64,000 nucleotides of DNA. Origin: a virus. Below, piece by piece: positions 27,696 through 63,910 of this stretch (the first letter of the stretch is position 1; every line of letters begins with the position of its first letter). The stretch covers positions 26,516-90,515 of IMG/VR virus record IMGVR_UViG_3300002138_000190; one strand, written 5' to 3'. The notes under the pieces were generated by a model, which saw nothing but the letters and a program-made list of their open reading frames with translations, was not told where the DNA came from and did not search any database. Both the position numbers and the translations under genes were made by a program.

Positions 27696-28581
27696 TTATA
27701 TAGGTTGCATAATAAAAACTTTTATCAATTCCAAAATATTTTATTTTTGTTTCTGGTTTGTTTTTCATAAACCAAAATATATTTGCGTTGATAATTTCGT
27801 CTGCTAGAATTTGTTGAGGATATTGATACATGTTATTTTTTAAAATTGCACCATTTTTATTTTCTTTGTAGCCATCAGAACAAGACATTAAGTAAATATT
27901 CTTGGCATTGCCATAATAACAATTTATTAAAGCAGCACAAATAGGATTTCTATAATCATCTATGTGCTTTGAATAATCATTTTTTATTGGTGCTTGATAA
28001 TTTTTATTGGGAGTAGAATGATAAACATATAATCCTGCTCCGTAATTGTAATTTTTAAAAAACTCTGGATGAGTTTTAGTACTTGCCAACAATCTTGGAA
28101 ATATTCTTTTGTTTATGCTGCTTAAACAATCTTTGTAGGGATTATTTATTACAAAAAGACTTGGCAAATACTTGTTCTTATTCCAAAGTTTTAGTGAATT
28201 GTTTGTTAAAATAATATATGGATTGCGTATTTTTACAGAATTAATTAAATTTAATGTTTTTTCAAATTCAAAACCATCAGATACTATAAATACTGTTTTA
28301 TCAAATAAATTTTCAGCTTCGTAAGTAGAATTCTTGTGATAACTATTGATAATTTCATTATTGATAATCGTACTAATTTCATGCTCTAAATAAAAATTGT
28401 TTAAATCTAAAGCAGAAGCATGGTTTATACCAAAATCTCTTACCCAAATTTTTTTATTATCTGTTAAAGCATATTGATTTCCCGAATGATGATTGCGAAT
28501 TGAAATTTTAAATTTTTCATTTCTTGTTTTTACATGGTATGATTGCAAAACACGGATAGTCTTCTCCATTTTCATCTCCAA
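27655..28581 (-). CDS. DUF115/Maf (MptE-like) fold protein, diverged; possibly sugar-transfer related
   Basis: TVFIVSDG, YIILTNNSL and AALINCYYGNAKNIYLMSCSDGY parallel the DUF115 pattern (ivGnGPSL ... lGak.I.LlG.D). Confidence 0.45.
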   Translation of the reverse strand: MEMKMEKTIRVLQSYHVKTRNEKFKISIRNHHSGNQYALTDNKKIWVRDFGINHASALDLNNFYLEHEISTIINNEIINSYHKNSTYEAENLFDKTVFIVSDGFEFEKTLNLINSVKIRNPYIILTNNSLKLWNKNKYLPSLFVINNPYKDCLSSINKRIFPRLLASTKTHPEFFKNYNYGAGLYVYHSTPNKNYQAPIKNDYSKHIDDYRNPICAALINCYYGNAKNIYLMSCSDGYKENKNGAILKNNMYQYPQQILADEIINANIFWFMKNKPETKIKYFGIDKSFYYATYINEEEFKEDFHEQQ

Positions 28582-30928
28582 GGATTTTTTTATAGTCTAA
28601 CTCAATTTTAACTTCAATTGGACTGCCTTTGTATACCATTTCAATTTCTGGATTTTCAGGCATTTTTAAGTTTATTTCTGATGGTATTGATCCTCTTATT
28701 TCAATAAAATCAGGAATTCCAGTAATACTGATTGATTGAGGAATATTTCCAATATCAAACTTAATCATGCATGGCAATTCAATGTCACTCTCTAATCTAA
28801 TAATACTTGGTATATTTTCTGATTTTAAAAATATAGTATTTGGCATGTTCCCAGCATCTATTTGGATAATACTAGGAAAATCACTTACAATTTTAATTTC
28901 AGTTGGAAGTTTGTCTTCAAGTTTTATTTTTATGTCTTTTATTTCGGGCATTTGTATCTGAATGTATTCAGGAATATCATGTAATACTTGAATGTCTCTA
29001 ATTTCAGGTACTATTAAGTTAATTTCTTTTGGAATACCATTTGTATCGTAATCCATTTCCATTCTTAAATCAGTAAAATTTAATTTATCGGAATCTCCAT
29101 GCAATGAATTTTTTGCATTATTGGCTGCATACAAAGCAGAAGATGGACATACAATGTTTACAGTACATTTAACTACTGGGGGAGTACCCCAGTAAACACT
29201 AATCATTGGCGGGCTATTATAATTAAGATTAATTGTATTAGGAATACTACTGCCACCAGCTATTATGATTGTATCTGGTATTTTAGAATCTGTAAAACTA
29301 ATTATAGATGGAATTGTTTGCCCAATTAAAATAATTTCACTTGGGAAACAACCACCAACAACAGATATGACAGATGGAATAGTGCCTTCAATTTTTATTG
29401 TAGATGGAACATTAACAGGGCCAAATGAAATTGGGCCGAAAGATGGAGCAGGGCCAAATAGAATTGGGCCTAAAGCTGGAGTAGGGCCAAAAACAACTGG
29501 GCCTAAAGATGGAGCAGGGCCAAAAACAATTGGGCCTAAAGATGGAGTAGGGCCAAAGTTAATTGGGCCTAAAGATGGAGCAGGGCCAAAGTTAATTGGG
29601 CCTAAAGCTGGAGCAGGGCCAAAGTTAATTGGGCCTAAAGCTGGAGCAGGGCCAAATGTAATAATTGAAGGCAATGTAACACCAACAAGTGTAATAATTG
29701 AAGGTATTGTCGGTGTAAGGCTAATAATGCATGGTATTATAGGTGTAAGGCTAATAATGCATGGTATTATAGGTGTAAGGCTAATAATGCATGGTATTAT
29801 AGGTGTAAGGCTAATAATACTTGGTATTATCGGAAAATTAGCAAAAGATATAATACTTGGTATTATTGGTATATTTGTGAAAGATATAATACTTGGTATA
29901 TTTATTGGGGAAAAACTAATAAATGAAGGTATGTTTACTGGACCAAAAGAAATTATACTAGGTATGGGTGGTACTATGCTAATTATGGATGGAACATTTA
30001 TATAAATACTTGGAATAGATGGAAAACTAGGAACATTTATGCAAGGAAAAACAATTGGAGGTATGTTTATGCTTCCAACTGGAATATTAGGGTTTGGTAT
30101 AGAAAAATTAGGTATGGCAGGACAAGATGGGATAGTTAAATTTAAGGTTTGTTGTTGTTGTGCTATTCTAGGTTCTGATGGATTTGCCCTTTGCAAAGCA
30201 GTTTGTACAGTTGTACATTTAGGGGATAATACTGTTACAACAGGATCAATACTAGAAGACAAAGCATATATTTTTCTTCCTGACAAAGTACTCGTTGTAC
30301 TATCCCCATCGCCAAAATCAATAGTAAATGATGTATAAACACCATTTATTTGCAAATTGTAACTTGCTAAAATACCAGTATTTAAATTAGTTTCCAAAAT
30401 TGTAAATGTGAAATTGATTTCAGGACATCCATAATCATCTAAAATTGGAGGTGTTAAAAATAAGTTTCTAATTTTCCAATCTAAGGTTGTTTGATCTATG
30501 TCAAAGTCAATTCCTATAAATTTTTCTAAATTAACAATTGCTTTTACTAATTGATTGTGATGTTCAGCTACAACAAATCCTCTGATTGAAGTTCCAGCTT
30601 TATTAAAACGACTTGGTTCTCCACCTAAGTTTCTTATGCAATTTTTTAATGCAATTATTTTACCAGTTACATATTCTTTTTCTACATTGTTGTAATATAA
30701 TAATTCACCGTTAATTGTAGCAAAACCATTAATTGGCCAAGGATCTTCTGTTAGATATTTATTTGTATACGGCAAAATGTAAATTATTTCAGACCATGCA
30801 AAGTTATCTGATGCCAAAAATGATTCTGTGGTATTTTTTACTTTAAATAGAGTATAGTCTGTGTCAATTCCGTAAGGATACACAGGTTGTGGTATAAAAT
30901 TTTGATTTTGATTGCTTAATTCACCCAA
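28517..30928 (-). CDS. Virion appendage protein with a shared N-terminal domain, a PKD-like domain and long Pro/Ile-rich repeats
   Basis: TTG start with RBS AAGGTG; AEHHN motif; DFGDG; repeats IPSIISF, IISLTPIIPC and FGPAPALGPIN. Confidence 0.75.
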   Translation of the reverse strand: MGELSNQNQNFIPQPVYPYGIDTDYTLFKVKNTTESFLASDNFAWSEIIYILPYTNKYLTEDPWPINGFATINGELLYYNNVEKEYVTGKIIALKNCIRNLGGEPSRFNKAGTSIRGFVVAEHHNQLVKAIVNLEKFIGIDFDIDQTTLDWKIRNLFLTPPILDDYGCPEINFTFTILETNLNTGILASYNLQINGVYTSFTIDFGDGDSTTSTLSGRKIYALSSSIDPVVTVLSPKCTTVQTALQRANPSEPRIAQQQQTLNLTIPSCPAIPNFSIPNPNIPVGSINIPPIVFPCINVPSFPSIPSIYINVPSIISIVPPIPSIISFGPVNIPSFISFSPINIPSIISFTNIPIIPSIISFANFPIIPSIISLTPIIPCIISLTPIIPCIISLTPIIPCIISLTPTIPSIITLVGVTLPSIITFGPAPALGPINFGPAPALGPINFGPAPSLGPINFGPTPSLGPIVFGPAPSLGPVVFGPTPALGPILFGPAPSFGPISFGPVNVPSTIKIEGTIPSVISVVGGCFPSEIILIGQTIPSIISFTDSKIPDTIIIAGGSSIPNTINLNYNSPPMISVYWGTPPVVKCTVNIVCPSSALYAANNAKNSLHGDSDKLNFTDLRMEMDYDTNGIPKEINLIVPEIRDIQVLHDIPEYIQIQMPEIKDIKIKLEDKLPTEIKIVSDFPSIIQIDAGNMPNTIFLKSENIPSIIRLESDIELPCMIKFDIGNIPQSISITGIPDFIEIRGSIPSEINLKMPENPEIEMVYKGSPIEVKIELDYKKILGDENGEDYPCFAIIPCKNKK
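29417..29656 (-). repeat. 33-bp coding tandem repeat, 7 copies plus a partial copy
   Basis: Plus-strand units like AGGGCCAAAGTTAATTGGGCCTAAAGCTGGAGC; encode FGP(A/T)P(A/S)LGP(I/V)x. Confidence 0.93.
29703..29822 (-). repeat. 30-bp coding tandem repeat, 4 copies
   Basis: Plus-strand unit GGTATTATAGGTGTAAGGCTAATAATGCAT; encodes IISLTPIIPC. Confidence 0.93.
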
Positions 30929-47419: not shown

Positions 47420-50400
47420 TTATGCAAATCCACCTGTAGCTGGTGCTATTGTATTATTGCCCTTAATATAATCAGATCTATTCATAGTTCCAGTTTGTAA
47501 TTTAGCTGAGAATTTTCCTTTGTAATCTTGCAAATTACTATTTTGATCAAATGGACTTTGATCAGTATTATTTCTAGAGGGAACTGATATGTTTAATGCT
47601 TTTAATATATTGCCTAAAACATTGATAATATCAGTTTGTTTTCCATTTATTTCATCATTAATATCAGTAAGTTCTGATAATTCATCAATATTTTCTGTGC
47701 TTGGCTTAGAAGATTCTTGCATTTGTAAGTTTTGGGAAAACATATCTGTACTTTTGTTCTCAGGCATTTCTGCATTAGTAGCTGTAGAAACTTCTCCATT
47801 GTTTATTTTTATATTTCCCAAAGAATTAATTTCATTTATTTTGCTAACATTTTCTGTCATTAATTGAAGTATTTTGTCTAATTGTTCTCCAAAATTTGTC
47901 AATGCATTTTCTAAAGGACTTAAACTAATGGCTTCTATGTCAATGTCCTTGAATATATTTGTTAATGCAGAAACATCAAATGCTGGCATTTCGTTCATTG
48001 TTAATTTGTTGATGTTATCTTGCATTGTGTTGATGATTCCATCTAATTGCAATCCAAGATTTACCATTGCATTTTCTAAAGGATCAGCATTAATAGCATT
48101 TGTGTCAACATCTTTGAATATATTTGTTAATGCTGATACATCAAATGATTTAATTTGATCTATTAATTTTTCAAGTGCTAAAAGTTTTTCGAGATTTTGA
48201 ATTGTTCCATCAGAAATACTAACAAAAGTTCCCTTGAAGAAATCATTATTAAATATTTCAGCTAACTGACTAATCTTTTCAGAAGCATCGTCACCATATT
48301 TTGTGTCTATGTAATTTAAAAGTTCTTCCATGCTGTTGAAAAATCCAATAAATATTGGCCCTAAATTTGAACATAAAGTAGCCAAAGAACTAATCTGAGA
48401 TGATGCTTTTGCCAATAATTTAGGACTTGCTGAAACCATCAACAAAGGTACAACTACTCCCTGCATGATAAAGCTTAACAAACCAATAAAAACTGTTCTG
48501 AAAGATTCGCCTTTTGCTCCAAGTTTTGCACCTAAAGATGCATCAACCGATTCTAAGTTTTTCATTAAATCAGGTAGCTTAGTACTTAAATTTTCAATTA
48601 AACTTGGTAATGCATTTACAATGGTTGCAATACTTGTGATTTTCTTTGCTATTTTATCAAGAGATTTGCTTGAAATAGGTATTGCAGCAAGTGGTATAAT
48701 AAAATTATTGTATAAACTAACAACAAATTCAGGTAATTGCTCTCCAAATTCTTCAAGTTTAGAACTTACATCTTGTATGAAAGTAAGATTGCTATTATCT
48801 ACTTTCATTAATTTTCCAATGCAATCATTAACATTGGTTATCAAAACAGGCAAATCCTTTGCTATAGTACTAACAGATGTTAGTATTGCAGCTGTTTTTG
48901 TAAGTTTCTTAGGATTTGTAACTTTATTTAAAATTGAAAGTGGTTCAATAACATTTTGTATCAATGCTATAACAAAATCTGCTATCAAATAATTTACTGG
49001 CCCACTATTTTTAAGCTCGCCATATAAGGTTTGTACATTGGGGCCAACTTCTTTTAACTTTCCAATTTGAGTTGATGCTGCTTTTATTGTGGCAGGATCT
49101 AGGTCTGTTCCCAATATAGTAAACAATGAAGTCAATGCAGAAATTGCTTCACTTGTAGCTTTAAGTATTTTTGCAATTCTTTCAACTTTTTTAGGATTGA
49201 TACTAATTGTAGATTTACTAAATGGTTCTATTAAATTTTTGATTATGAAATTTGGCAAGCTTGACATTATTTGGCCAAAGTCACTTGTTCCTTTATCTGA
49301 AAGAACATCTTTTAAATAATTAGCAACAGATACAGCTTTTTTAATTCCTTGCGAGTCTATTGTAATAACTTCATCGTTTAAGTTTGATGCAATTATTCCC
49401 ATGCTTTCTAGTAAACTAGAAACTTCTCTTATTATTGTTCCGTATCCACCTAGTATTTTTGTTGCTTCAGTAAAATCTTTTTCACTTATGTTAATTTTTT
49501 TAAATCCTGAAACAATTTCAGAAAACTTTGTAAGCAATGGAACAAAATCACCATCGAAAAATTTTCTAATAGCGGTAATGTTTTCAGCTATGGTTGGTAA
49601 TTTCTTTTCTATTGCTGCAACAGGAGTAGAGGTTTGGCTGTTTCCAGAAGGATAAACTTGTTCTGTTTTTGCAACCTCTTGTTTTGCTTCATTTAAAAAA
49701 GCAAAACAAGAAGTGAATTGATTTATAACAGTAGAAATAGCTTTGGAAAAAGCAATAAACGAAGTAAAATCTAATTTTGGAATGTTAGGAATTCCACCAA
49801 TAAAACCTTCAATTTCTGAGAAAAAAGAATCATCTAATATAGAACTTTTAATATTTGCAATTGAAGTTTGTATTGATTTTTTAATGTTTTCTAAATCTGC
49901 TAATTCTATAGGCTTAAAGTTTTTGATAGTTTGAAGAAAATTAGCATCGAATATAGTAATTAAATCTTTGAACGAACTCATGCTTTTGGTTACTAACATT
50001 AATTTATCACCAAGCTTAGATATTTTGCCTGATGCATCTTCCCCACCAGCTTCAGTAGTTAATTCTGTAATTGCTACATTCAAATCTCTATTCATGTATA
50101 TTATTGTTTTTAATGCTCGCCATGTATTTTCTGATGCTTCTGAAAATGCTTCACCATCGGCATAATATTTTCTTGCAAACATTGCCTTGTTTTCTGTAAC
50201 AAAATTAATACTTGGCATAATTTCTTTTTGAAATAATGTAAAAAACTCTCCAACTTTTTGAAAGTTTTTTGACACTAACATTAACTTGTCACCAACACCA
50301 GATATTTTTCCTGATGCATCTTTTCCAGTCTCTTCTTTAAATAATGTATCGAATGCTACATTTAAATCTCTATTGATATACATCAGGGTTACTAACACTT

Positions 50401-53400
50401 TCCATATGTTATTTGATGCATCAGAAAATCCAATTTTATTACCAGCTTCATCTACTACATCAGAATAATATTGGGTTGCAAACATTGCCTTGTTTTTTTC
50501 AACAAAATCAAGACTAGGCATAATATCTTTTTGAAATGATGTGAAAAACTCTCCAACCTTTTGAAAGTTTTTTGATATTATTGCTAGTTTGTCATAAACT
50601 TTATCTAGAGAATTGCTTTTATCGGGATTCATTCCTACTAAATTACCAATTTCAGTATTTATAATATTATTGATGGCAATTAAATTTTTAAAGAGCAGAG
50701 AAAAGTTTTCCACTAATTCAGATTGCTCTTTAGAAAACTTTTCTACTTTTGTACTGCTCCAACAACCATGCCACTTAGTTGAGGTTGTGGTTTTTGTATA
50801 TTCACCCATCATTAACATTTCTTTACTTTTTTCAAATTCCTTCATTGGCCCTGCAATATCATTGTTGAAGATGTTTATTAAAGTCTTCAAAGAAATCATT
50901 AATTTACCTAAATTTTCAGCCATTGCAGTAACAGGCCCAATTGAAACTACATTTACATCTTTGTATTTCTTTGAAATTTCAATTAAGGCTTTTGAATTAT
51001 CTAAAATATTTTCATAGAATTTGGTTAGTTTTGATTCAATTTGTTTTGTTCCAATTTCTTTGGTTGCAACATTTTTTGGAACAGCTACTGGTTGTTCTGA
51101 TACTCTGCCTCTATAGCTACCATCTGTGTTGTACATTTCATCGCCAATGGTAAAGCCATATTGTTTTTCTTTCTTGGGTTCTATTTTTATTGGTTTCAAA
51201 GCATCTTGTTTGTCAATTCCACCCATCAAGGTATTTATTTGTCTCATAGATTCAGCTGAACTTGCAACTGCTTTTGTCAAAACTGCTATTTGTTCAATTT
51301 TGCTGGCTGTTGATTTCAAATCTATATTTGATATTTTATATTTTCTTGTAACATTTAAACTTGCTTCAACATTTCTAAAAACATTATCTAACACTTTTGG
51401 CAAACTGTCATTGCCAAGACTTTTATTTAATTCTTCTAGGTTTTTAGTATTTAAATTTTTACCAAATTCACTTGAGTTTCCAGTAAATTCAGAAAAGATA
51501 TCTGCCATAGATTTAACAAGGTCTAAACTTTCTTTTACTTTAGCTAAAGGAATATTTTTAGTAGTTTCATACATTTCATGTGAAATAGTTGCAGTTGCAA
51601 TAATAACTGATGTTATGGAAGATTTAACATTTTCTATTATTTTTGCAGCCTTGGCAAAAGATGCTTGTGCATTTTCAATTGTGTCAAAAGATGAACTGTT
51701 TACAATTTGGTCTAATGAAGCAAGACCATTAAACAACGGTAGTGCTGTTGAAGAAAACGCATTAACAAATTCATTTAATTTTTTAAAATTTGAAGGATCT
51801 ATGTTTTGTAAAGAAGACAATAATTTAGGACTTGCTATAGCAAGGCCAGCTATTACAGCAAAACAATTTTCTAAATGTCCTGCAACTACTTCTGGTGTGT
51901 CAGCTTGTCCAATTGAATTTGATGCAGTTTTTAAACTTTGATATCCTGGTGCTAAAGCAATTGCTTCATCTGCTATTGCTTTAATTGCTTTGCCTAAACC
52001 TTTTGGGGATTCTGAATATTTTTCTAGTGTTGTAGCACTTTGTTTAATAATTTCAGGAGAAATTCTATATTTACTTTCTAAGTTTTTTATTACTTGTGGC
52101 ACTTCAGAAAGAACTGAAAACAAACTATTGATGACAGCTTTTATGGCAGCAATTGGGCTTGCCATATTATCCCCACCAGTAAACAGTTGCATTACCCATC
52201 CAATGCCTTGGCCAATTCCAACAGCAACACCACCTACAAGGCCACCAACGCTAACACCAGCTAATCCTGCTGCTGCTGCTGCTACATAGCCTATTAATTT
52301 TGCACCAGGCCCAAGAATTGCCGATAAGCTGTCTACAGCTTTAATTAGTTCACTTGGACTTACTGGCATTTTACTTATTGCATCTACTCCACTTTTTCCA
52401 ACTTCTCCAATCCATTCAACCATTCTGCTTATTGAAGCTGCTACTCCAAATCCTGGTAGGAATGATACAATCTTATCAAGCCCAACAGATAAAGTTCCAA
52501 TTAAACCACCAGCAAATCCTGCTAATACAGCAGTTCCTGCTGCTGCTAATGCAACTGAAAATTTAGCAATAGTATAAAATATAGAAGTGCATTCAGCAGA
52601 TGTTTTTTCAATTAATGGTATGTCCATTGAACTAGTAGTATCTGCTAATTCTTCTATCCCCATAGCCAATCTCAAAAGAACTCCAGATAAAACTATAAAT
52701 AGCACAGCCCCTATTGCTAAAGCAGCAATGAGTGTTCCACTAGTTCCTATTACACCATATCCCAAGGCAGTCATTGGTGCAGCTGCTGCAATCATAACTA
52801 AAGACAAAACACCAACACACGCAAATAAAATGCTTAATTTTTTAGTGGTATCTATAAGTTTATTTTCATCTATTCCTAATTGATCTACTACTCCAGATAG
52901 GTAAACTAATCCCGATCCTAAAATTCCAACAGCAACACTCATAAGTACAAAAGTTCCTGCTCCTGCTGCTAAAGTTGCAAAATCTCCTTTGCCAAAAACA
53001 TTCATCATTTTTTGCATTGTTTTTAGAATTAAAGAAAATGCTAATATTTCTGTTGATAGAAATATTGTGGCAGCAAAAAGAATTCCTATTTTCTTAGTTA
53101 CTGCAATTATTTTTTGTTCATTTATGTCAATACCTGTTTTTTGAAGCAACATCATTGCACCAAATATAATTCCAGCTGCAAGTAAAAGACCTCCTAGTCC
53201 AAGTGCAAAATTTCCTGCATATCCTTTAAATGCTCCACCATTAATAACACCGCTTTTAGGTGGATTTGCTGAAGCAGCTGATATTTTTCTCGCTGGCATA
53301 TTTCCAGATTTTTTACTTACTCTTGTTGTTGCTGCTGGTTTCTTTAATTTATCTGCTCCTATTAATGCAGCATTTGCTGCACCTTTTCCAAATCCATTCC

Positions 53401-55411
53401 TTGCATAGCTACTAGCAGCTATTATTGCTACACTCGTAGCAATAACTCCTAAAACACCAGCAGAACTCATAAAGGCAGATATGGTTCCACTAGTGCCTTT
53501 CATAATTTCTGTTTTTATTTCTTGTAAATATTGATTTGTTTCAGTAAGTGCATCTAGTTGAGTTTTTTGTTTAGTTGCATTAGTTGTTTCAGCTTTTGAT
53601 AATTTCGCAGTTAATTCTCTAAAAGAAGCTGGATTATCTAATGCTTTTTCAATTTCTGAAGATGTAATTCCTAAATTTTTCTTAGTTGCAGTTTCAATTC
53701 CTTTTATTGCTTCTTGTAAAGCACCTCTAATAACTTCTTTATTTGTTCCTTTTAGTCCTAAAGATTGCAAATCTTTTTCAAATTCTTTTCTTCTTTCACC
53801 AAACTTTGAAAGAGCTTCATCCATGTTCTTAGCCCCAACTGCTGCTTTATCAAGTACAGTAAGAGTTTCTAAAGATTTATTTGTAGCTAGTCTTCTTTTT
53901 TCTTCTAATGCAGATGTTTTTTCTTCCAAAGTTAAATTTGTTTTTAATCTTTTTTCAATATCGGCAACTCTATCACCATAGCCTTTACCAGCTTCGGTAA
54001 GTGATTCAACCACACCTCTTACTTCACCTAATTCAAGTCCAAATGCAGCTTTTAAGTTCAAATTAAGCTTCATTTTTGCAAAATCAGAAAGGTTGTCGAT
54101 TGCATCAATGCTTTCAACACCAAATCTTTTAAGTACATTTGTAACACCTTCGGCCAATGCTTTGATGCCTTCTTTGCTTCTTGTTAGAACACCTTTTTGC
54201 AAATCCCCAATTTTTCCAACACTTGCAGCAGCACTAAAAAGTAAACTTTTTGTTTGATTTGATGCTGTAAAGAATAAATTAGTGGTACTACTTGCAGCTT
54301 CCAATAAAGTTTTTGCTTGCTCTGTTACTCCAAGTTTTTCTGCTGCTGCTATGCCTTGTGTTACATTTTTTACTGCTGTAGCTGTTAAGGTAGATGCTTT
54401 TCTCATAACATCTATGATTGATTGTGACGAACTCATTGCCTGTTGTAGATTTTTACCTGTTAAGCCAGTTTGTTTGGCTATATCTCTCATTCCTCTGCCA
54501 ACATCTGCCAATTCCCCTTCTGTCAATCTTCCAACTTGATAAAGATGATTAAAGGTATCAAATAGGTCACCAGCTTCTAGCCCCAATTGTTTTTCTGTTG
54601 ACAATTGTGCTTCTGTTAAATTAACTAATTTTTCTTTGTATTTAACTGCATTGCCATCAAGTTTAACACCAGCCTTCATGTATTTAATTAAATTTTCTTG
54701 AGCTTGTTCTTGAGATGCACCAGTAACTTTAGTTATATTTTCTAAATCTTCTAAGGTTTTAAATAAGTTTTGGTTTGCTGATGTAACATTTCCAGTTTCA
54801 TAAAGTGCTGCTCTTACTTCTTGTGTGTATTTTACTTGAGCACCTACACCTTCTAAAACTGTACCAACTAATCCTCTATATCCAGTATTTAAATTTACAA
54901 GTTGTTCGGCAGCATATTTTAAATTAGTTACTAGCCCTTCCATCAAATTTTCATTTCCAACAAACAATTGATTTCCGCTTTCAAAATTCAATTTTGTTTT
55001 GCCTGTTGATTCAGGTTTAGTTGATACAGGTTTAGATGATCTTTCACGACCCATTCTTGGGTCACCATAGCTTCTAGGTTTTTGGCTTTTTCTAAATGCA
55101 TCTCTCAGTTTATTGTTTGGATCATTTTTTTGAACTTTATTATGATCTTTAGATTTCTTAATAGGATTGGCTTCTTTGGTTGCAGTATTATTTAACTTTT
55201 TAATTACTTCTGCTACTTTTTCAACATACTTTTCTGATTTTTTCATTTCAACAAGAACATCTCTGTTTACTTTAAGTAGTTCTTCTAGTAAAGCTTTAAC
55301 TCCAAGATTAGCTGGATTAGCTTGTGGTTGAGCTTGAGGTGGTGAAACACCACCAAGAATTTGCTGCATTACTGCATTTACATCAATAGGGCCAAGAGGT
55401 TGTTTTGCCAT
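47420..55411 (-). CDS. Tape measure protein (2663 aa)
   Basis: Very long Ala/Lys/Ser-rich helical protein upstream of the tube initiator and hub genes; multiple hydrophobic segments around 52200-53500. Confidence 0.88.
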   Translation of the reverse strand: MAKQPLGPIDVNAVMQQILGGVSPPQAQPQANPANLGVKALLEELLKVNRDVLVEMKKSEKYVEKVAEVIKKLNNTATKEANPIKKSKDHNKVQKNDPNNKLRDAFRKSQKPRSYGDPRMGRERSSKPVSTKPESTGKTKLNFESGNQLFVGNENLMEGLVTNLKYAAEQLVNLNTGYRGLVGTVLEGVGAQVKYTQEVRAALYETGNVTSANQNLFKTLEDLENITKVTGASQEQAQENLIKYMKAGVKLDGNAVKYKEKLVNLTEAQLSTEKQLGLEAGDLFDTFNHLYQVGRLTEGELADVGRGMRDIAKQTGLTGKNLQQAMSSSQSIIDVMRKASTLTATAVKNVTQGIAAAEKLGVTEQAKTLLEAASSTTNLFFTASNQTKSLLFSAAASVGKIGDLQKGVLTRSKEGIKALAEGVTNVLKRFGVESIDAIDNLSDFAKMKLNLNLKAAFGLELGEVRGVVESLTEAGKGYGDRVADIEKRLKTNLTLEEKTSALEEKRRLATNKSLETLTVLDKAAVGAKNMDEALSKFGERRKEFEKDLQSLGLKGTNKEVIRGALQEAIKGIETATKKNLGITSSEIEKALDNPASFRELTAKLSKAETTNATKQKTQLDALTETNQYLQEIKTEIMKGTSGTISAFMSSAGVLGVIATSVAIIAASSYARNGFGKGAANAALIGADKLKKPAATTRVSKKSGNMPARKISAASANPPKSGVINGGAFKGYAGNFALGLGGLLLAAGIIFGAMMLLQKTGIDINEQKIIAVTKKIGILFAATIFLSTEILAFSLILKTMQKMMNVFGKGDFATLAAGAGTFVLMSVAVGILGSGLVYLSGVVDQLGIDENKLIDTTKKLSILFACVGVLSLVMIAAAAPMTALGYGVIGTSGTLIAALAIGAVLFIVLSGVLLRLAMGIEELADTTSSMDIPLIEKTSAECTSIFYTIAKFSVALAAAGTAVLAGFAGGLIGTLSVGLDKIVSFLPGFGVAASISRMVEWIGEVGKSGVDAISKMPVSPSELIKAVDSLSAILGPGAKLIGYVAAAAAGLAGVSVGGLVGGVAVGIGQGIGWVMQLFTGGDNMASPIAAIKAVINSLFSVLSEVPQVIKNLESKYRISPEIIKQSATTLEKYSESPKGLGKAIKAIADEAIALAPGYQSLKTASNSIGQADTPEVVAGHLENCFAVIAGLAIASPKLLSSLQNIDPSNFKKLNEFVNAFSSTALPLFNGLASLDQIVNSSSFDTIENAQASFAKAAKIIENVKSSITSVIIATATISHEMYETTKNIPLAKVKESLDLVKSMADIFSEFTGNSSEFGKNLNTKNLEELNKSLGNDSLPKVLDNVFRNVEASLNVTRKYKISNIDLKSTASKIEQIAVLTKAVASSAESMRQINTLMGGIDKQDALKPIKIEPKKEKQYGFTIGDEMYNTDGSYRGRVSEQPVAVPKNVATKEIGTKQIESKLTKFYENILDNSKALIEISKKYKDVNVVSIGPVTAMAENLGKLMISLKTLINIFNNDIAGPMKEFEKSKEMLMMGEYTKTTTSTKWHGCWSSTKVEKFSKEQSELVENFSLLFKNLIAINNIINTEIGNLVGMNPDKSNSLDKVYDKLAIISKNFQKVGEFFTSFQKDIMPSLDFVEKNKAMFATQYYSDVVDEAGNKIGFSDASNNIWKVLVTLMYINRDLNVAFDTLFKEETGKDASGKISGVGDKLMLVSKNFQKVGEFFTLFQKEIMPSINFVTENKAMFARKYYADGEAFSEASENTWRALKTIIYMNRDLNVAITELTTEAGGEDASGKISKLGDKLMLVTKSMSSFKDLITIFDANFLQTIKNFKPIELADLENIKKSIQTSIANIKSSILDDSFFSEIEGFIGGIPNIPKLDFTSFIAFSKAISTVINQFTSCFAFLNEAKQEVAKTEQVYPSGNSQTSTPVAAIEKKLPTIAENITAIRKFFDGDFVPLLTKFSEIVSGFKKINISEKDFTEATKILGGYGTIIREVSSLLESMGIIASNLNDEVITIDSQGIKKAVSVANYLKDVLSDKGTSDFGQIMSSLPNFIIKNLIEPFSKSTISINPKKVERIAKILKATSEAISALTSLFTILGTDLDPATIKAASTQIGKLKEVGPNVQTLYGELKNSGPVNYLIADFVIALIQNVIEPLSILNKVTNPKKLTKTAAILTSVSTIAKDLPVLITNVNDCIGKLMKVDNSNLTFIQDVSSKLEEFGEQLPEFVVSLYNNFIIPLAAIPISSKSLDKIAKKITSIATIVNALPSLIENLSTKLPDLMKNLESVDASLGAKLGAKGESFRTVFIGLLSFIMQGVVVPLLMVSASPKLLAKASSQISSLATLCSNLGPIFIGFFNSMEELLNYIDTKYGDDASEKISQLAEIFNNDFFKGTFVSISDGTIQNLEKLLALEKLIDQIKSFDVSALTNIFKDVDTNAINADPLENAMVNLGLQLDGIINTMQDNINKLTMNEMPAFDVSALTNIFKDIDIEAISLSPLENALTNFGEQLDKILQLMTENVSKINEINSLGNIKINNGEVSTATNAEMPENKSTDMFSQNLQMQESSKPSTENIDELSELTDINDEINGKQTDIINVLGNILKALNISVPSRNNTDQSPFDQNSNLQDYKGKFSAKLQTGTMNRSDYIKGNNTIAPATGGFA
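47830..48150 (-). repeat. Internal ~165-bp (55-aa) duplication in the tape measure gene
   Basis: FDVSALTNIFKD..PLENA occurs twice; TTGAATATATTTGTTAATGC recurs 165 nt apart. Boundaries approximate. Confidence 0.8.
49980..50600 (-). repeat. Internal ~300-bp (~100-aa) duplication in the tape measure gene
   Basis: KNFQKVGEFFT.FQK.IMPS...NKAMFA...NRDLNVA...DASGKIS..GDKLMLV occurs twice, with DNA-level similarity. Boundaries approximate. Confidence 0.85.
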
Positions 55412-58075: not shown

Positions 58076-58145
58076 GTATCCCCTTATCTTATTTAGATTT
58101 AAATTAATAAATAACTTTTTTTTATTAATGTTAAATAAATAAAAT

Positions 58146-58589
58146 ATGGGAATTAAAAATAACAATGAAGAAAATAATGCTGATAACTTTCAGATTAACA
58201 GTTATATCCTTGAAATTCATGATTTAACTACAAGAGTTGATGAAAGGGTAAAAACTGTTTTCAAGCAATTAAGTGAAACTGATAAGAAACTTGAAAAAAT
58301 TAGAGATAATTATGCTGCATTAATAACTAAAATTAATGCCATAGAATTTCACGAAATTCCCTGTATTGCCAAAAAAATAGATCAAGTTAAAAATGATTTA
58401 GATTCTTTTGAAGATGAATTTGAAAAACATGTTTCTAAGTTACAAAGATATGAAAACTATACTAAAGAACTTAAATCATTTAAAAAAACAACTGAAGAAA
58501 AGTTAAAATCAACATTTGATATTGTTTTCAAAGTAATCATGACCCTAGTTTCAGCATATATAATTTATTCGTTAGGATGGAACAAATAA
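58146..58589 (+). CDS. Coiled-coil protein with a C-terminal transmembrane helix (holin/XhlA-like architecture)
   Basis: DLTTRVDERVK coiled coil; C-terminal IVFKVIMTLVSAYIIYSLGW. Confidence 0.6.
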   Translation: MGIKNNNEENNADNFQINSYILEIHDLTTRVDERVKTVFKQLSETDKKLEKIRDNYAALITKINAIEFHEIPCIAKKIDQVKNDLDSFEDEFEKHVSKLQRYENYTKELKSFKKTTEEKLKSTFDIVFKVIMTLVSAYIIYSLGWNK

Positions 58590-59848
58590 TGGAAGACATA
58601 ATACCAAAAATTAAATTAAATAAAAAATCACAAAGTGATATATTAAAACCTTTGACGATAGATCATGAAAATCATCCATCTCTCCAAAGAATTGTTGATG
58701 CTTTTGAAAATTCTGACAAAGTAACTTTGGGTTACTCAACTTTGGACAAAGATGATAGTATGTCCAAGCCTTCATTGAAAAAGAAACTAATCTATTTAAC
58801 TGGTGCATCTTTAAGAGATCATCTATTCAATAAAACATTTCAAAAGTATGAATTAGTTACCAATGCAACTCCTGAAGAAATAAGAATGATCTTAAATTTT
58901 TATAAGTTTAGTGAATTTAAGCCTTATGATAAAAAAAATTCAAGTAAGTACTCCAAACTTGAAGCAACATCTATGAATCCTTTTAAATATTATGCTAGTA
59001 AGTGGGATTCATATGGTAACGAAATGGGCTTTGAAATTATTGTTAGAAATCAAATTTTACATCTTGATACCTTGGATAAAAATCCAAAGTATCTTTTAGA
59101 ATCCCCAAATTTAAGAAAATTTACATCTTCTGTTCATGATGATGCTATGTCAAGAGATATTTCAGTAAATGCAATTTATTTGAAATTAAAAAATTCTGAT
59201 GGCGAAAATACAGAATTATATGACCCAATTAGAGGGGTTCATGATATTATTCATGGTGAAATCAATCTTATAGGAAAAGATCATAATAAATTTGAAGAAA
59301 ATCCTGATTTGATGTTTAAATTAGTTGAAGCAAGTACAAGGTTTTCTGATAACAATAAATTGTCTGAAAACAATTTGAATACTATTAAATCAAACTATAA
59401 AAAAGTTAAAAATTTACCTAAATTATTTAAAAAAAGTTATACTTCTGCTATCAGTAATGAAGATGTTCCTACTTATCATTATCTTAAAAACTTATATGTG
59501 TCTGGTCTTTTGTTTAAATTATTTCCAAAATTGAAAATAACCCCACCTAATATGAGTTTATTTGATGATTATGTTTTTATTACAGCATATATTCTACAAA
59601 ACAACAATGATGGACTTATATTTAGTTCTTTGACTAGTATGGATTGGAATAAGTTTGAAATTAAAGAAATTGTTTTTGTCAAGTCTTTAATTGATTGGGC
59701 TAAAAATAATGATGAAGACTTATTAAAGAAAATTCTGATTCAGTTTACAGACATTCCTGTTAAGAAAACAATTGATTTCATGAAAATTTTCAATAAAGAA
59801 AAAGAATTTAAAAGATTATTAGAGAAATATTCTTCTGGTGTTATTTAA
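58577..59848 (+). CDS. CCA-adding enzyme / poly(A) polymerase homolog with degenerate catalytic motifs
   Basis: YLTGASLRD, (K-Y-E)LVTNATPEEI, DDAMSRDISVNA and YDPIRGVHDI...I.LIG...F.ENP. The fold is recognisable but DxD, RRD and EDxxR are altered. Confidence 0.8.
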   Translation: MEQIMEDIIPKIKLNKKSQSDILKPLTIDHENHPSLQRIVDAFENSDKVTLGYSTLDKDDSMSKPSLKKKLIYLTGASLRDHLFNKTFQKYELVTNATPEEIRMILNFYKFSEFKPYDKKNSSKYSKLEATSMNPFKYYASKWDSYGNEMGFEIIVRNQILHLDTLDKNPKYLLESPNLRKFTSSVHDDAMSRDISVNAIYLKLKNSDGENTELYDPIRGVHDIIHGEINLIGKDHNKFEENPDLMFKLVEASTRFSDNNKLSENNLNTIKSNYKKVKNLPKLFKKSYTSAISNEDVPTYHYLKNLYVSGLLFKLFPKLKITPPNMSLFDDYVFITAYILQNNNDGLIFSSLTSMDWNKFEIKEIVFVKSLIDWAKNNDEDLLKKILIQFTDIPVKKTIDFMKIFNKEKEFKRLLEKYSSGVI

Positions 59849-59855
59849 TTAGTAA

Positions 59856-60689
59856 GTGAAATTCATAACAATAGTTGAAAATGTGCCATTTTATCAATGG
59901 CAAATAGAACTTTTAATACAATCCTTTAAAACATATAATTTACAGGATGATCTATATGTTTTTTTAATTGGTGAAAACAATAAAATGTTTTTTAAAAATA
60001 TTGATCAGTTTGAAAATTTGTATTACATTAAAGAAAACTCTAAAAGATTTGGATTTAATTATTTTGATTTTTACGAATCAATTATTTATTTCAAACAAAA
60101 TAATCCAGATGAAGATTTTTGCATAATTGATCCTGATTGTATTTTGAACAAAAATGATTTTTCTTTTTTCAACGATAAAAATATATTTTACCAAGCAGAA
60201 ATCATTAAAAAAGATTATATAGACAAAGCTTTAGTAGGATTAATTCTTAAAACAGTACAACAAATTTGTTCTGTTTTTTATTTTTCAAAAGATATTAGTA
60301 TTGATTTCTTTAAAAAAAGTTTATACGCAACTGAAGAATTTATAATTGAAATTTTGAAAACCAATGAAATAGATGTTGTTGCAAGTGATTACAATATTTT
60401 TAAATATGGATTATTATTAGTTGCAATTTTAGACGAAAAAACTATTTCCGCATCTTTTGATTCAGTAATTTTCCCACAAAACAATCATTCAGATGCCATT
60501 TTTCTTTCTTACAAACACAGCATTATGCCTTTTTTTAAAAAAAATGATTTCAAGTTTGATAGAAATAACATTATAATTATGCATCCTGAAAGTCCATTTG
60601 AAAATTTAATGGAACTTCCTGATTTCCCCAATTGTATTCCATTGAAGAAAATTGCAATATCTTATGAGAAAAAATTAGATGAAATATGA
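59856..60689 (+). CDS. Putative GT-A glycosyltransferase resembling plant HPAT/SGT1 protein O-glycosyltransferases
   Basis: GTG start; N-terminal YQWQIELLIQSF and a DxD motif in FCIIDPDCIL. Confidence 0.5.
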   Translation: MKFITIVENVPFYQWQIELLIQSFKTYNLQDDLYVFLIGENNKMFFKNIDQFENLYYIKENSKRFGFNYFDFYESIIYFKQNNPDEDFCIIDPDCILNKNDFSFFNDKNIFYQAEIIKKDYIDKALVGLILKTVQQICSVFYFSKDISIDFFKKSLYATEEFIIEILKTNEIDVVASDYNIFKYGLLLVAILDEKTISASFDSVIFPQNNHSDAIFLSYKHSIMPFFKKNDFKFDRNNIIIMHPESPFENLMELPDFPNCIPLKKIAISYEKKLDEI

Positions 60690-61761
60690 TTATATTGTCT
60701 GTGGATCAGGATTAGTAGGTGCTGTCTTTGCAAGAAAAATGCATGATAATAAAAAAACTGTTTTAGTTATCGACAAAAGAAAACATGTTGCTGGCAACTG
60801 TTACACAGAGAAAATAAATGGAATTAATGTGCATAAGTATGGATGTCATATATTTCATACAAATAAAGAAAATGTTTGGGATTTCTTAAACCAATTTTCA
60901 AAATTTAATAATTATAGGCACAAAGGCATTGTGAATTATAATGGTAAAATCTTTAGCTTTCCATTAAACCTAATGACATTTTCACAATTGTGGAATGTTA
61001 AAACTCCTGATGAAGCTATTAAAAAAATAGAAACAGAAAAAATAAAAATTGAAAACCCAAAAAACTTAGAGGAATGGTGTCTTGCAAATGTTGGAAAAGA
61101 AATATATAAAATTTTTATAAAAGAATATACAAGTAAACAATGGAACAAAAATCCAAAAGATTTGCCTATAAGCATAATAAAAAGAATTCCAATTAGATTT
61201 GACTTCAATGATGATTATTTCCATACATCAAATTATCAAGGCATACCAGAGAATGGATATACAAATTTAATAAATAATATTCTAGATGGTATTAGAGTTG
61301 AATTAAATACTGATATTTTTAAAACTAATTGGAAAAGTTATGCTAATAAATTAATATATTGTGGTGCAATAGATCAATATTATGAATATTGCTTTGGAAA
61401 ATTAGAATATAGAAGTCTGCGTTGGGAACACAAAGAAGTAAATGGAGATTTTCAAGGACATTCTGTTGTTAACTATACAGACAGTAAAACAAAATTTACT
61501 AGAATCATAGAACACAAACATTTTGATAAACTTAAATTTGATAAATCAATTGTAAGTTATGAATTTCCTCAAGATTTTAAAGATAAAAATGAGCCATACT
61601 ATCCAATAAATGACGAGAAGAATAATTTAATTTATTCAAAGTATAAGAAAATTCATAATCCAAATGTTGTTTTTACAGGAAGATTAGGAATTTACAAGTA
61701 CATTGACATGGATGATGCTGTTTCTTTAGCTTTTAAAAATGCAGAAAATGAGCTAACTTAA
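60679..61761 (+). CDS. glf: UDP-galactopyranose mutase
   Basis: FAD motif CGSGLVG, HVAGNCY, HKYGCHIFHT, YQGIP..GYT, LEYRSL, TRIIEHKHF, EPYYP and GRLG.YKY.DMD. Confidence 0.95.
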   Translation: MKYDYIVCGSGLVGAVFARKMHDNKKTVLVIDKRKHVAGNCYTEKINGINVHKYGCHIFHTNKENVWDFLNQFSKFNNYRHKGIVNYNGKIFSFPLNLMTFSQLWNVKTPDEAIKKIETEKIKIENPKNLEEWCLANVGKEIYKIFIKEYTSKQWNKNPKDLPISIIKRIPIRFDFNDDYFHTSNYQGIPENGYTNLINNILDGIRVELNTDIFKTNWKSYANKLIYCGAIDQYYEYCFGKLEYRSLRWEHKEVNGDFQGHSVVNYTDSKTKFTRIIEHKHFDKLKFDKSIVSYEFPQDFKDKNEPYYPINDEKNNLIYSKYKKIHNPNVVFTGRLGIYKYIDMDDAVSLAFKNAENELT

Positions 61762-62541
61762 TTTTTTTATTTTTAAAATAGGGTTTAAAATACTTAAGTT
61801 TTTTGACGAGCCAGTAAAACTTATACAAGGTATTTTCCATACAATAAATATTAAAACTTCTAAGAACAATATGAAATAAAAATTAATGTATTTTTCAAAA
61901 TGTTTTTTTTCTAGCTCAAAAACATTTATTGTTTTTTTCATTTGACGAGCTAAATTTTTATTATCTAAAAGAATTTTGAAAGTTGTATCTTTGCAAATAA
62001 ATAATTTTTTATAAAAGCATATGAATGCAAATAAGTATTCATATTTTTTCTTGAAAAAACAAGTTTCTACTTTTTTTGAGAATGCTTCAAAAAGTACAAC
62101 TCTGCTAATTGCAAAATAATAAGTATTAGATGCATGTGTTTTGTACAAGTTACAATTTATTTTATGGTAGAATCTTGGCTCTTCAGTTATAATTTGTTTA
62201 AAAGCACTACAACTAGTAGTAAAATCAATAATTCCTGCTTTTTCTTTATATTTTCCATAGTACCAAGAAGTTCTTTCTATTGTCTCTAATAAATATTTTT
62301 CATCAGCAGAAATATTTACAAATAAAAATTGTTTGTGGGTTTTTTTAAAAGCTATTCGTTCTAGTATTTTATTCATGTACTTAGATTTTACATTTATTAA
62401 TTTTTTACTTTTACAATCAAGTTCTTTTCCAAAGTTTAAAAACAAAAAACTTATTTTGTTGTTTTTGCAAAGATGTAATAGTTTTTTGTTTATTTTTTCT
62501 TTTTCGTTTCTTACGAATATTATCATCGTTTCATCAAGCAT
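61753..62541 (-). CDS. Hypothetical protein
   Basis: 262-aa ORF coupled to the upstream gene; hydrophobic C-terminus. Confidence 0.55.
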   Translation of the reverse strand: MLDETMIIFVRNEKEKINKKLLHLCKNNKISFLFLNFGKELDCKSKKLINVKSKYMNKILERIAFKKTHKQFLFVNISADEKYLLETIERTSWYYGKYKEKAGIIDFTTSCSAFKQIITEEPRFYHKINCNLYKTHASNTYYFAISRVVLFEAFSKKVETCFFKKKYEYLFAFICFYKKLFICKDTTFKILLDNKNLARQMKKTINVFELEKKHFEKYINFYFILFLEVLIFIVWKIPCISFTGSSKNLSILNPILKIKKLS

Positions 62542-63307
62542 TAAAAAGATCCTTATTTTTTACTGGATGAACCACACATGTTTTTTCAGTTAATTCATTT
62601 TTTTTAATAGATGGTTGAAATCTCATTCTGTAAAAGTTACTCATCCCTGTGTATTTCTCAACTTTTTTCGAGCATAAATTAAAAACCCCATGTTTTAGCA
62701 CCATGCAAGCAGTTGGTATAAAAACTTCTGCCATGTCATATTGGAAAAAATTTGGGTAATTATAGCAGTCAGGTATTAAAGTTGAATAATTTAAAAAATC
62801 TGGAAGTAATTTTTCACACAATTGTTTCATGAAAACACTCCCAATAAAGTAACAACATCCCAACATGCAAAAATGAGTACGAATAACTTTCTTAAAGAAT
62901 TTTTGAAACAAATAACCATCACAAAAAATACCTCTAAAATCAGAAGTTACTAATTGATAATTTTTATTAAGCAAACTTAAATCTTTTTTTATTGTGTCAT
63001 TTAAAATAAAATTATCATACTCGCAATAGCAGTACCATTTTTTATCTGGAAATTTCTTATAAGTTTCAATTAAGTTATAAAAAACATTTCTGTATGGATT
63101 TCTTCTAAAATTATGTTTAAATCCTTTTATTATTGTAACATCTTTGAATTTATCTAAAGGCCAAGAATCATATCCAGATTCTTCTATTAGCATGTGTATG
63201 TTTTCAGTTAGATTCATTTGCAAAAGATTTACATTTGTCCTTACTATAAAAGGATCAGCATGCACATTAAGAGCAACCGCAATGTCTTCAGATAACACCA
63301 TATACAA
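62534..63307 (-). CDS. Putative GT-A-fold glycosyltransferase
   Basis: PDKKWYCYCEYDNFI (DxD-like ExD after an aromatic strand); lies next to glf. Confidence 0.4.
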   Translation of the reverse strand: MYMVLSEDIAVALNVHADPFIVRTNVNLLQMNLTENIHMLIEESGYDSWPLDKFKDVTIIKGFKHNFRRNPYRNVFYNLIETYKKFPDKKWYCYCEYDNFILNDTIKKDLSLLNKNYQLVTSDFRGIFCDGYLFQKFFKKVIRTHFCMLGCCYFIGSVFMKQLCEKLLPDFLNYSTLIPDCYNYPNFFQYDMAEVFIPTACMVLKHGVFNLCSKKVEKYTGMSNFYRMRFQPSIKKNELTEKTCVVHPVKNKDLFNA

Positions 63308-63800
63308 AATCCCATCTGCTATTTTTGATCAAATTGCCTTTATTGACATTTTCTAAATAATAATAAATTTCATTCCATGAATTAAAAAATATTTCATGTT
63401 TCATAAAACCATAATACCATATTGGGATATTTTCTTTCCCTTCAGGACAAATTAACATAACAGGTTTTTTCATATTATTTGCATTTATTATTTCATTGTG
63501 AGTTCCAACTGTTGGAACTTTATATGGCAAGTAAGCAATTAAAGCATCACAACGATCAACCATAGTCAAATCTTTCCTAACAAATTTATTTGCAATTTCA
63601 GTTAATTTATTGAAATTTTTTTCTTCTTTGTATTGATTGATTTTATCAATCCATTGTTGTTTTGGATCAGAAAATGGATCAAAAACATTAATGTTAAATT
63701 TTACTTTTAAATTTTCAATAACATCTTTTCTCCAATTGATTTCACTTCCAAATTCTATTGGGCCTGATAAATAAAAGTTACTGTTTTTTAAATAATTCAT
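63288..63800 (-). CDS. Nucleoside 2-deoxyribosyltransferase / N-glycosidase-like protein
   Basis: FYLSGPI, VFDP, DLTMVDRCDALIA and GTHNEII (catalytic Glu). ATG at 63800 (track start 63848). Confidence 0.8.
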   Translation of the reverse strand: MNYLKNSNFYLSGPIEFGSEINWRKDVIENLKVKFNINVFDPFSDPKQQWIDKINQYKEEKNFNKLTEIANKFVRKDLTMVDRCDALIAYLPYKVPTVGTHNEIINANNMKKPVMLICPEGKENIPIWYYGFMKHEIFFNSWNEIYYYLENVNKGNLIKNSRWDFVYGVI

Positions 63801-63910
63801 GAAACTTCCCTTTAATTTAAATTTAACAATATTTCTTGTGAAAATCAATTAAAAAAAAAAATTATTACTATTTTGAATAATAATAATATAAACTTAGAAA
63901 GGCAAATAAA

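Follow-up and report, generated by a model that had tools for sequence, protein, structure and literature searches.

An unclassified GT-A glycosyltransferase family at the head of a glycan island in a huge T4-like freshwater phage

Plant SGT1 (GT96) is a peptidyl-serine alpha-galactosyltransferase that O-galactosylates serine residues of proline-rich proteins, and the plant HPATs (GT95) use a furanose donor, L-arabinofuranose and D-galactofuranose (Galf) being alike in ring stereochemistry. UDP-galactofuranose (UDP-Galf) is made by the UDP-galactopyranose mutase Glf. Glycan islands encoded by viruses are a common feature of aquatic phages; precedents for viruses that modify their own proteins are the glycosylation of mycobacteriophage virions (Freeman 2023, as cited in PMC12619734) and the autonomous glycosylation of giant viruses (PMC4691112, PMC10117803), and 5-hydroxycytosine galactosylation has been proposed for Rhizobium phage RL38J1 (PMC13326640). 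Here, we analyze a stretch of 64,000 nucleotides (the window), positions 26,516 to 90,515 of the 115,879-bp IMG/VR record IMGVR_UViG_3300002138_000190, in which a 277-residue glycosyltransferase (GT), termed GT277, is encoded together with Glf at the head of a glycan island. GT277 is a member of an unnamed, unclassified GT-A family that was not found in the INPHARED phage records. The best reading of the island, which we favor tentatively, is that it glycosylates the phage's own (virion) proteins in the cytoplasm.

The record carries T4-type portal, capsid, terminase, and baseplate genes, its completeness is 23% by CheckV, and its capsid protein shares 75% identity with the one from LR756511.1, an uncultured phage of 595 kb. 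The window belongs to a genome fragment from a huge T4-like freshwater phage of roughly 0.5 Mb. Metagenomes of 11 studies, from lakes, freshwater, and estuaries, contain the DNA of this phage. Megablast and tblastn searches with the cassette, GT277, and P0168 gave no match among the INPHARED phages.

The fold and the family of GT277

The original prediction, made from the letters of the window, described a late operon for furanose protein glycosylation in which an HPAT/SGT-like transferase is coupled to Glf. GT277 indeed carries the Y-x-W-Q...S-F and DPD motifs on which this was built, at Y13-Q-W15-Q16...S23-F24 and D92-P-D94; the N-terminal pattern, in the form Y-x-x-W-Q...S-F, is presumably shared with the plant HPAT and SGT enzymes. 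We modeled GT277 by AlphaFold with 12 homologues (pLDDT 79, pTM 0.84) and searched the PDB with Foldseek, which gave 258 matches at E ≤ 1e-3. All of those listed are GT-A enzymes or sugar nucleotidyltransferases, which confirms the proposed GT-A fold, and D92-P93-D94 comes after the strand 88-91 in the model, as a DxD-type motif does in GT-A enzymes. An exhaustive structural alignment with VIA placed glycogenin first (Z 13.9), and the other top rows, with Z 12.9-13.4, include chondroitin polymerase, human glycogenin-1, Skp1 alpha-galactosyltransferase, LgtC, and the GT8 domain of WbbM. Retaining enzymes of the GT8/GT77 type are prominent among these matches of the predicted structure.

In the Swiss-Prot AlphaFold library, the top match of GT277 is Arabidopsis SGT1 (Q8VYF9, GT96; E 4.6e-7, TM 0.58). 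The four best matches include PLENTY and HPAT1 as well, and RDN2, RDN1, NOD3, HPAT2, and HPAT3 stand lower, interleaved with other GT-A enzymes. These SGT1/HPAT-group matches, all to predicted models only, have E values of 4.6e-7 to 3.5e-5 and TM scores of 0.56-0.63 over GT277 residues 2-276, and the GT8 enzymes, glycogenin, CrtQ, and other GT-A enzymes in the same library have TM scores of 0.39-0.51. HPAT-like entries are likewise found among the matches in the AFDB clusters, the best cluster being that of an unnamed 'nucleotide-diphospho-sugar transferase' protein (TM 0.80, 23% identity). As judged from these models, the closest characterized structural relatives of GT277 are plant SGT1 (GT96) and HPAT (GT95), and the enzyme is probably of the retaining GT8/GT77/GT95/GT96 type.

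At the sequence level, the profile PF23452 of the HPAT family (GT95; gathering score 23.9 bits) matches neither GT277 nor 11 close relatives even at E ≤ 10; it matches two of 147 members of the GT277 family weakly (best E 0.012), and its searches of the phage's own genome and of three metagenome-assembled genomes (MAGs) with family members gave nothing useful. Pfam has no match for GT277, including PF01501 and PF03407, the GT277 profile has no match among PDB sequences, and searching again for homologues, with the profile of the family, brought up family members only. The predicted likeness to HPAT/SGT enzymes therefore holds at the fold level, where SGT1 and the HPATs are the best full-length reviewed matches, but not as sequence membership of the HPAT family, because GT277 has no PF23452 match. 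Since no hydrophobic segment was found in GT277, which thus has no type II membrane anchor of the kind that gives HPATs their secretory location, the enzyme would be cytoplasmic and not Golgi-located.

We found at least 185 clusters of the GT277 family in an exhaustive profile search (E ≤ 1e-3), all of about 250-300 residues. Near-invariant positions are W15, Q16, L19, L20, S23, F24, D94, Y219, P225, F227, K229, and P247; D94 is kept in 130 of 147 members and position 92 is H, D, or E, which gives the motif (H/D/E)-P-D. Positions 92 and 218 co-vary, with H/H in 75 members and D/S in 16, the latter including 13 of the 13 members of the window's clade. This clade also replaces G222, elsewhere 99% conserved, by D or S, so that the Glf-linked members are marked by the three changes H92D, H218S, and G222D/S. 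The ESM Atlas neighbors of GT277 are 97-100% viral, and family members are located on contigs of 217, 420, 546, and 587 kb. A genome-contig scan of MAG assemblies found only three members, on a 546-kb contig with the gene block of the lineage, a 48-kb contig with part of the block, and a 54-kb contig on which no neighboring lineage gene was seen. Wherever its context is readable, the family is found only on phage-like contigs of this huge-phage lineage. The three MAG contigs were binned as Chloracidobacterium (L017, 48 kb), Neisseriaceae (L018, 54 kb), and Bacteriovoracaceae (L019, 546 kb), which is either mis-binning or a weak hint of the host.

Gene order around Glf and the content of the island

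Glf contains PF03275 (E 1.1e-67) and PF13450 (NAD_binding_8, E 2.9e-18) and aligns over residues 3-359 with the solved mutases 4mo2 (E 2.9e-114) and 1i8t (E 2.1e-107). With a GLF domain, an FAD-binding Rossmann motif, and full-length similarity to solved mutases, the gene is a genuine glf, as had been predicted. The four plus-strand open reading frames (ORFs) are as tightly packed as claimed (Table 1), with junctions, read directly, of a 13-nt overlap, a 7-nt gap, and an 11-nt overlap; the TGA stop of GT277 (60687-60689) lies 11 nt inside glf, whose ATG is at 60679. On the converging strands, the stops of glf and of the gene for the 262-residue protein overlap by 9 nt. The original prediction overlooked this second GT-like gene and did not recognize the cassette as no more than the head of an island of ~25 kb, which extends beyond the window end to genome position ~109,200.

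Table 1. Features at the head of the glycan island, in window coordinates
Feature	Position	Strand	Remark
TAAATA hexamer, proposed late promoter	58132-58137	+	no commoner than chance
147-aa coiled-coil-like protein	58146-58589	+	first gene of the plus-strand run, kept across the lineage
423-aa PolyA-polymerase/CCA-enzyme-like protein	58577-59848	+	PF01743, eroded catalytic center
GT277, soluble GT-A glycosyltransferase, GTG start	59856-60689	+	predicted structure, no Pfam match
Glf, UDP-galactopyranose mutase, 360 aa	60679-61761	+	PF03275
262-aa putative membrane-tethered GT-like protein	61753-62541	-	N-terminal fold, low confidence
257-aa ExD-type GT-like protein	62534-63307	-	Atlas neighbors, E96-x-D98
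186-aa nucleoside 2-deoxyribosyltransferase-fold protein	63288-63848	-	PF05014, PF15891

The specific coupling of GT277 to Glf is not supported by the comparison with relatives. In nine of ten independent contexts (20-54% identity to GT277), a PolyA_pol-like gene stands within a few genes of the GT; in the tenth (L018), it was not found in the stretch examined. The GT also adjoins a conserved minus-strand block that encodes a giant protein of 2,300-2,760 residues and then proteins of about 160, 165, 440, and 160 residues. Glf, however, is adjacent to the GT only in the window's clade and in a clade of ~33% identity, and in the latter (L007, L008) it is encoded on the other strand, where the orthologues of the 262- and 257-residue proteins belong to the same run. 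The 546-kb contig has the GT where it usually stands (L026) and a Glf, 57% identical to that of the window, 147 kb away, co-directional with a homologue of the 257-residue protein and among genes for a GT2, two sulfotransferases, and a methyltransferase. Each of the three arrangements seen has the 257-residue gene next to Glf, and in those of the two relatives (L007, 48% identity; L025, 29% identity) both genes run in the same direction. Thus, the GT keeps its PolyA_pol-like neighbor in relatives without an adjacent Glf, and Glf stays with the 257-residue gene. Because this gene is the conserved partner of Glf, and because 147 kb separate the GT from Glf on the 546-kb contig, the GT277/glf overlap is a derived state; it is shared by a ~52% identical relative (P0012), and the two genes abut without overlap in the P0005 relative. 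As the conserved neighbor of Glf, the 257-residue protein is a likelier galactofuranosyltransferase than GT277 and, on gene order, the better candidate for this role.

In the 595-kb relative LR756511.1 (L014), neither the GT277 family nor Glf was found anywhere in the record, in a search run with a positive control. This record retains the 447-aa / 147-aa / coiled-coil / PolyA_pol-like block. A gene for IS605 OrfB/TnpB (Cas12f-like; L025:14468-15619, +) lies 4 kb from the Glf cluster of the 546-kb contig, with a ParB-like gene and a gene for an RlaP-type RNA-repair nucleotidyltransferase near it.

The ExD motif predicted for a GT-like gene on the converging strand was found in the 257-residue protein as E96-x-D98, which is invariant, as is H247. 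The Atlas feature matches of this protein (0.97-0.98) are to 'Glycosyltransferase family protein' and to the DUF3405/DUF707 clusters. It has no Pfam match, its profile has no match in the PDB, and hhalign against the GT277 family gave a probability of 0.4%; a scan of viral contigs with the gene found a 98% identical copy only. Pfam and PHROGs gave nothing for the 277-, 262-, and 257-residue proteins alike. The model of the 262-residue protein is poor (pLDDT 60.6), and therefore only its N-terminal half was usable; the first ~158 residues match only GT-A/sugar-nucleotidyltransferase folds in VIA (Z 7.4-9.7), and Atlas shape matches to GT2 have TM scores of 0.35-0.46. This protein, which has one C-terminal membrane helix (residues 217-235) and evolves fast (29% identity to its L007 orthologue), is, at low confidence, a candidate membrane-tethered glycosyltransferase. 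The 186-residue protein matches PF05014 (E 1e-8) and PF15891 (E 2e-8), and its gene is syntenic in relatives and conserved inside the glycan island in both sub-lineages, the L007 orthologue being 7 kb from Glf. A gene of the nucleoside 2-deoxyribosyltransferase fold is an odd companion for glycan enzymes and possibly hints at nucleotide or nucleic-acid chemistry.

Upstream of GT277, the 147-residue product shows coiled-coil-type noise matches and a single C-terminal hydrophobic segment (residues 125-143), in agreement with the membrane-anchored coiled coil of the original prediction; orthologues of 24-28% identity are present in L009, L014 (plus the overlapping L013), L015, L017, and L026. The 423-residue product contains the PolyA_pol head domain PF01743 (E 1e-13). 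In its alignment to E. coli PAP I, D-F-D is replaced by K-Y-E and GG by GA, so that the catalytic GG...DxD pair of class II nucleotidyltransferases was not found, but distant lineage members retain D[FY]D and GGAVRD. The description of this protein as a pseudo-CCA enzyme holds for this sub-lineage, in which, by its sequence, it is probably not an active nucleotidyltransferase.

The island holds Glf and at least eight GT-like genes. It encodes an RmlD-like protein, two GT2_4-like proteins, a sulfotransferase, a PhyH dioxygenase, a hexapeptide acyltransferase, a xylose-isomerase-like TIM barrel, a GT47-like protein, an SDR, a radical-SAM enzyme, a MOSC protein, a DegT aminotransferase, a GT2, an LRR protein, a TauD dioxygenase, WbqC, a 4,6-dehydratase, and a GT9-methyltransferase fusion. 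Among these glycan genes, the LRR_14 protein (E 4.5e-21) is encoded at genome positions 103743-104627 (L003:14244-15128, -). Pfam scans of 20 island ORFs showed soluble enzymes only, and a hydrophobic-segment scan found no island protein with more than one segment. No priming transferase of the Bac_transf type was found, and the island has no flippase, polymerase, or ligase such as a Wzx/Wzy- or ABC-dependent locus would contain. Variants of the island, with genes for pyruvyl-, sulfo-, and methyltransferases, are present in relatives. In the 116-kb record (~23% of the genome), the prolyl hydroxylase PF13640 has no match; PhyH- and TauD-type oxygenases are those found in the island.

Outside the island, a GT9 (heptosyltransferase-family) gene at 23913-24869 (-), whose Pfam score of 28.4 bits exceeds the cut-off of 22, is surrounded by the virion structural block; a Maf-like gene suspected at 27655-28581 was not confirmed, having no PF01973 match. 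The same structural block encodes an 803-residue protein (28517-30928, -) with a 270-residue core of 'IPSIISF'-type and 'FGPAPALGPIN' repeats, in which I, P, and S account for 65, 54, and 35 of 275 residues. Speculatively, this 'IPS'-repeat protein is a candidate glycosylation acceptor; a complex prediction of GT277 with an IPS-repeat segment scored 0.00, which is evidence neither way. At 47420-55411 (-), a 2,663-residue protein with ~11 predicted hydrophobic segments is encoded, and all lineage members seen have a counterpart of 2,300-2,760 residues at the corresponding place; a role as tape-measure or ejection protein is possible.

The late promoter proposed upstream of the cassette was not borne out. 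The hexamer TAAATA occurs 158 times in the window, compared with 165 expected from shuffles, and is present in the 45 nt before 17 of 115 ORF starts, the corresponding numbers for other A4T2 hexamers being 14-25. The motif site reads GTTAAATAAATAAAAT and differs from the T4 late box TATAAATA. Because sigma-70-like sites are rarer than the shuffle mean, no intrinsic terminators were found by the terminator scan, and TAAATA is at chance level, without enrichment before starts, the late operon and its late timing have no support in the sequence. TAAATA has no overall upstream enrichment in the 116-kb record, yet it ends exactly 4 nt before the start in five genes, the one at 58146 included. Contigs similar to glf (window 60721-61203) at ~94-96% identity, from a related strain, are present in one lake-water metatranscriptome; these matches are contigs only and are therefore silent on timing, on co-transcription, and on transcription itself.

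Possible targets of the sugars

From the folds, gene content, synteny, and family distribution observed, we infer a retaining chemistry, a donor, an acceptor, and an order of steps that would run as follows. The GT277 family holds a fixed place by the PolyA_pol-like gene at the edge of the tail/baseplate block, and in this sub-lineage the ~25-kb island of soluble glycan enzymes has come to stand directly behind it. Glf would supply UDP-Galf, with the 257-residue ExD protein as the likelier Galf-transferase, and a flip of glf in this phage would have brought about its translational coupling to the HPAT-like GT277. A complex glycan, probably sulfated and methylated, would be built directly on phage proteins in the cytoplasm, and the SGT/HPAT-like GT277 would be a candidate for the protein-priming step. 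Such direct cytoplasmic build-up appears most likely because an enzyme for lipid-carrier priming, a flippase, a polymerase, and a ligase are all missing from the island. The GT9 gene in the structural block, the position of GT277 at the edge of this block, and the soluble enzymes without export machinery all count for a protein target, and so does the finding that the closest characterized relatives of the GT277 model are protein O-glycosyltransferases. The 'Moraphage' (PMC12619734) belongs to another lineage, whose genomes reach 307 kb, and was not used.

Several points weigh against a protein target. The HPAT/SGT likeness, being a fold-level one between models (TM ~0.6, 11-14% identity), says little about the acceptor. 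GT9, WbqC, DegT, and sulfotransferases are typical of lipopolysaccharide (LPS)/capsule pathways, the host machinery could supply the lipid carrier and the export steps, and the 262-residue protein is membrane-tethered by its predicted helix. With only about one quarter of the genome contained in the fragment, a priming transferase, a flippase, a prolyl 4-hydroxylase, or a ThyA homologue may lie elsewhere. The GT277 and Glf system is also dispensable, since the closest 595-kb relative lacks both.

Remodeling of the host envelope is possible, if on the doubtful side. According to this alternative, the island produces nucleotide sugars, adds residues at the cytoplasmic face to undecaprenyl-linked LPS, capsule, or S-layer intermediates of the host, and uses the host's flippases and ligases. 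The surface of the infected cell would thereby be altered, which might, for instance, block superinfection or prevent the sticking of progeny. The GT9, WbqC, DegT, 4,6-dehydratase, sulfotransferase, and GT2 genes are indeed those of O-antigen/capsule loci, and the GT2-like 262-residue protein, with its membrane anchor, has a weak likeness of the ArnC/GtrB type. However, the lack of a priming transferase, flippase, polymerase, and ligase in the island speaks against an envelope pathway; moreover, the GT277 family is fixed beside the tail/baseplate block and not in a host-like locus, and a lytic huge phage profits less from serotype conversion than a temperate one.

The strict form of the original prediction, in which GT277 itself transfers Galf from the UDP-Galf of Glf to serine or hydroxyproline of a virion protein in the manner of an HPAT, is improbable. 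It would explain the 11-nt overlap with glf, which the P0012 relative shares, and the changes at the otherwise near-invariant H92, H218, and G222 in the Glf-linked clade; it also agrees with SGT1/HPAT as the best structural matches, with the common ring stereochemistry of L-arabinofuranose and D-galactofuranose, and with the Pro/Ser-rich 'IPS' repeat fiber gene in the structural block. Gene order speaks against it, since the orthologous GTs of other lineage members have no adjacent Glf, since GT and Glf are far apart on the 546-kb contig, where Glf stands beside the 257-residue homologue, and since Glf in L007 and L008 is on the opposite strand in the run with the 262/257-residue orthologues. 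Neither a PF13640 prolyl hydroxylase in the fragment nor a PF23452 match of GT277 was found.

Hypermodification of nucleic acid, in which Glf and the GTs glycosylate a modified DNA base or act on an RNA, is less probable still. In its favor, a DNA glycosylation pathway that involves Glf has been described for a phage (PMC13326640), phages are known to have DNA glycosyltransferases of the GT-A fold (bioRxiv 10.1101/2023.12.21.572611), the island contains the nucleoside 2-deoxyribosyltransferase-fold gene, and, for the RNA version, GT277 stands near the tRNA-nucleotidyltransferase-like gene wherever that gene could be located. Nevertheless, no thymidylate-synthase homologue (PF00303) was found in the 116-kb fragment (about a quarter of the genome); known DNA glycosyltransferases are GT-B enzymes or JGT/TarP-like GT-A enzymes with R...DDD...EDY/F motifs, whereas GT277 best matches the GT8, GT77, and GT95/96 types and not JGT/TarP; and twenty-odd glycan-tailoring enzymes, including sulfotransferases, exceed any known DNA modification. 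Finally, that GT277, as a cytoplasmic phage counterpart of the plant extensin glycosyltransferases, primes serine or hydroxylated proline of a Pro/Ser-rich virion fiber, such as the 'IPS'-repeat protein, with a furanose, which the island then extends into an extensin-like sulfated and methylated coat, is a version of the protein reading that we consider very unlikely.

Comparison with known systems

The locus is a compact entry point to the targets of viral glycan islands, and it offers a small soluble GT family with clear catalytic-site signatures, a genuine Glf, and a comparative argument on which enzyme uses the furanose donor. Should the likeness to SGT/HPAT enzymes point to a protein acceptor, bacteriophages would share a chemistry of protein O-glycosylation that is known mainly from plants, which would support the view that huge phages glycosylate their own particles, like giant viruses. 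Even with the host envelope or DNA as the target, the family would remain an unclassified GT-A branch that deserves a CAZy family.

Compared with plant SGT1 (GT96) and with HPAT1-3, RDN, and PLENTY (GT95), GT277 has a similar GT-A-type fold with an acidic x-P-D motif, and these enzymes are its best full-length structural matches among reviewed proteins (TM 0.56-0.63), but the identity is only 11-14% and GT277 is outside PF23452. The plant HPATs are Golgi-located with a type II anchor, whereas the phage enzyme has no anchor and no prolyl hydroxylase was found in the fragment. In the case of the GT8/GT77 enzymes (glycogenin, LgtC, AgtA, and the C-terminal domain of WbbM), the folds are alike with Z 12.9-13.9 over 210-225 aligned residues, but GT277 matches neither PF01501 nor PF03407. 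The position of the second metal/phosphate ligand is Ser in GT277 and His in most of its family.

RL38J1 is likewise a T4-like phage with Glf and glycosyltransferases (PMC13326640); however, its GTs are GT-B enzymes clustered with a ThyA homologue and nucleotide kinases, none of which was found here. The 'LPS-like' islands of aquatic T4-like phages and the clusters of giant viruses and mycobacteriophages resemble the present island in that nucleotide-sugar enzymes are combined with many soluble GTs without export machinery. The present island differs from them in belonging to a huge-phage lineage, in including sulfotransferase, radical-SAM, and GT47-like genes, and in carrying an SGT/HPAT-like GT family at its head. 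The system is thus another phage glycan island of a known kind, and its particular feature is the unclassified GT-A family at the head.

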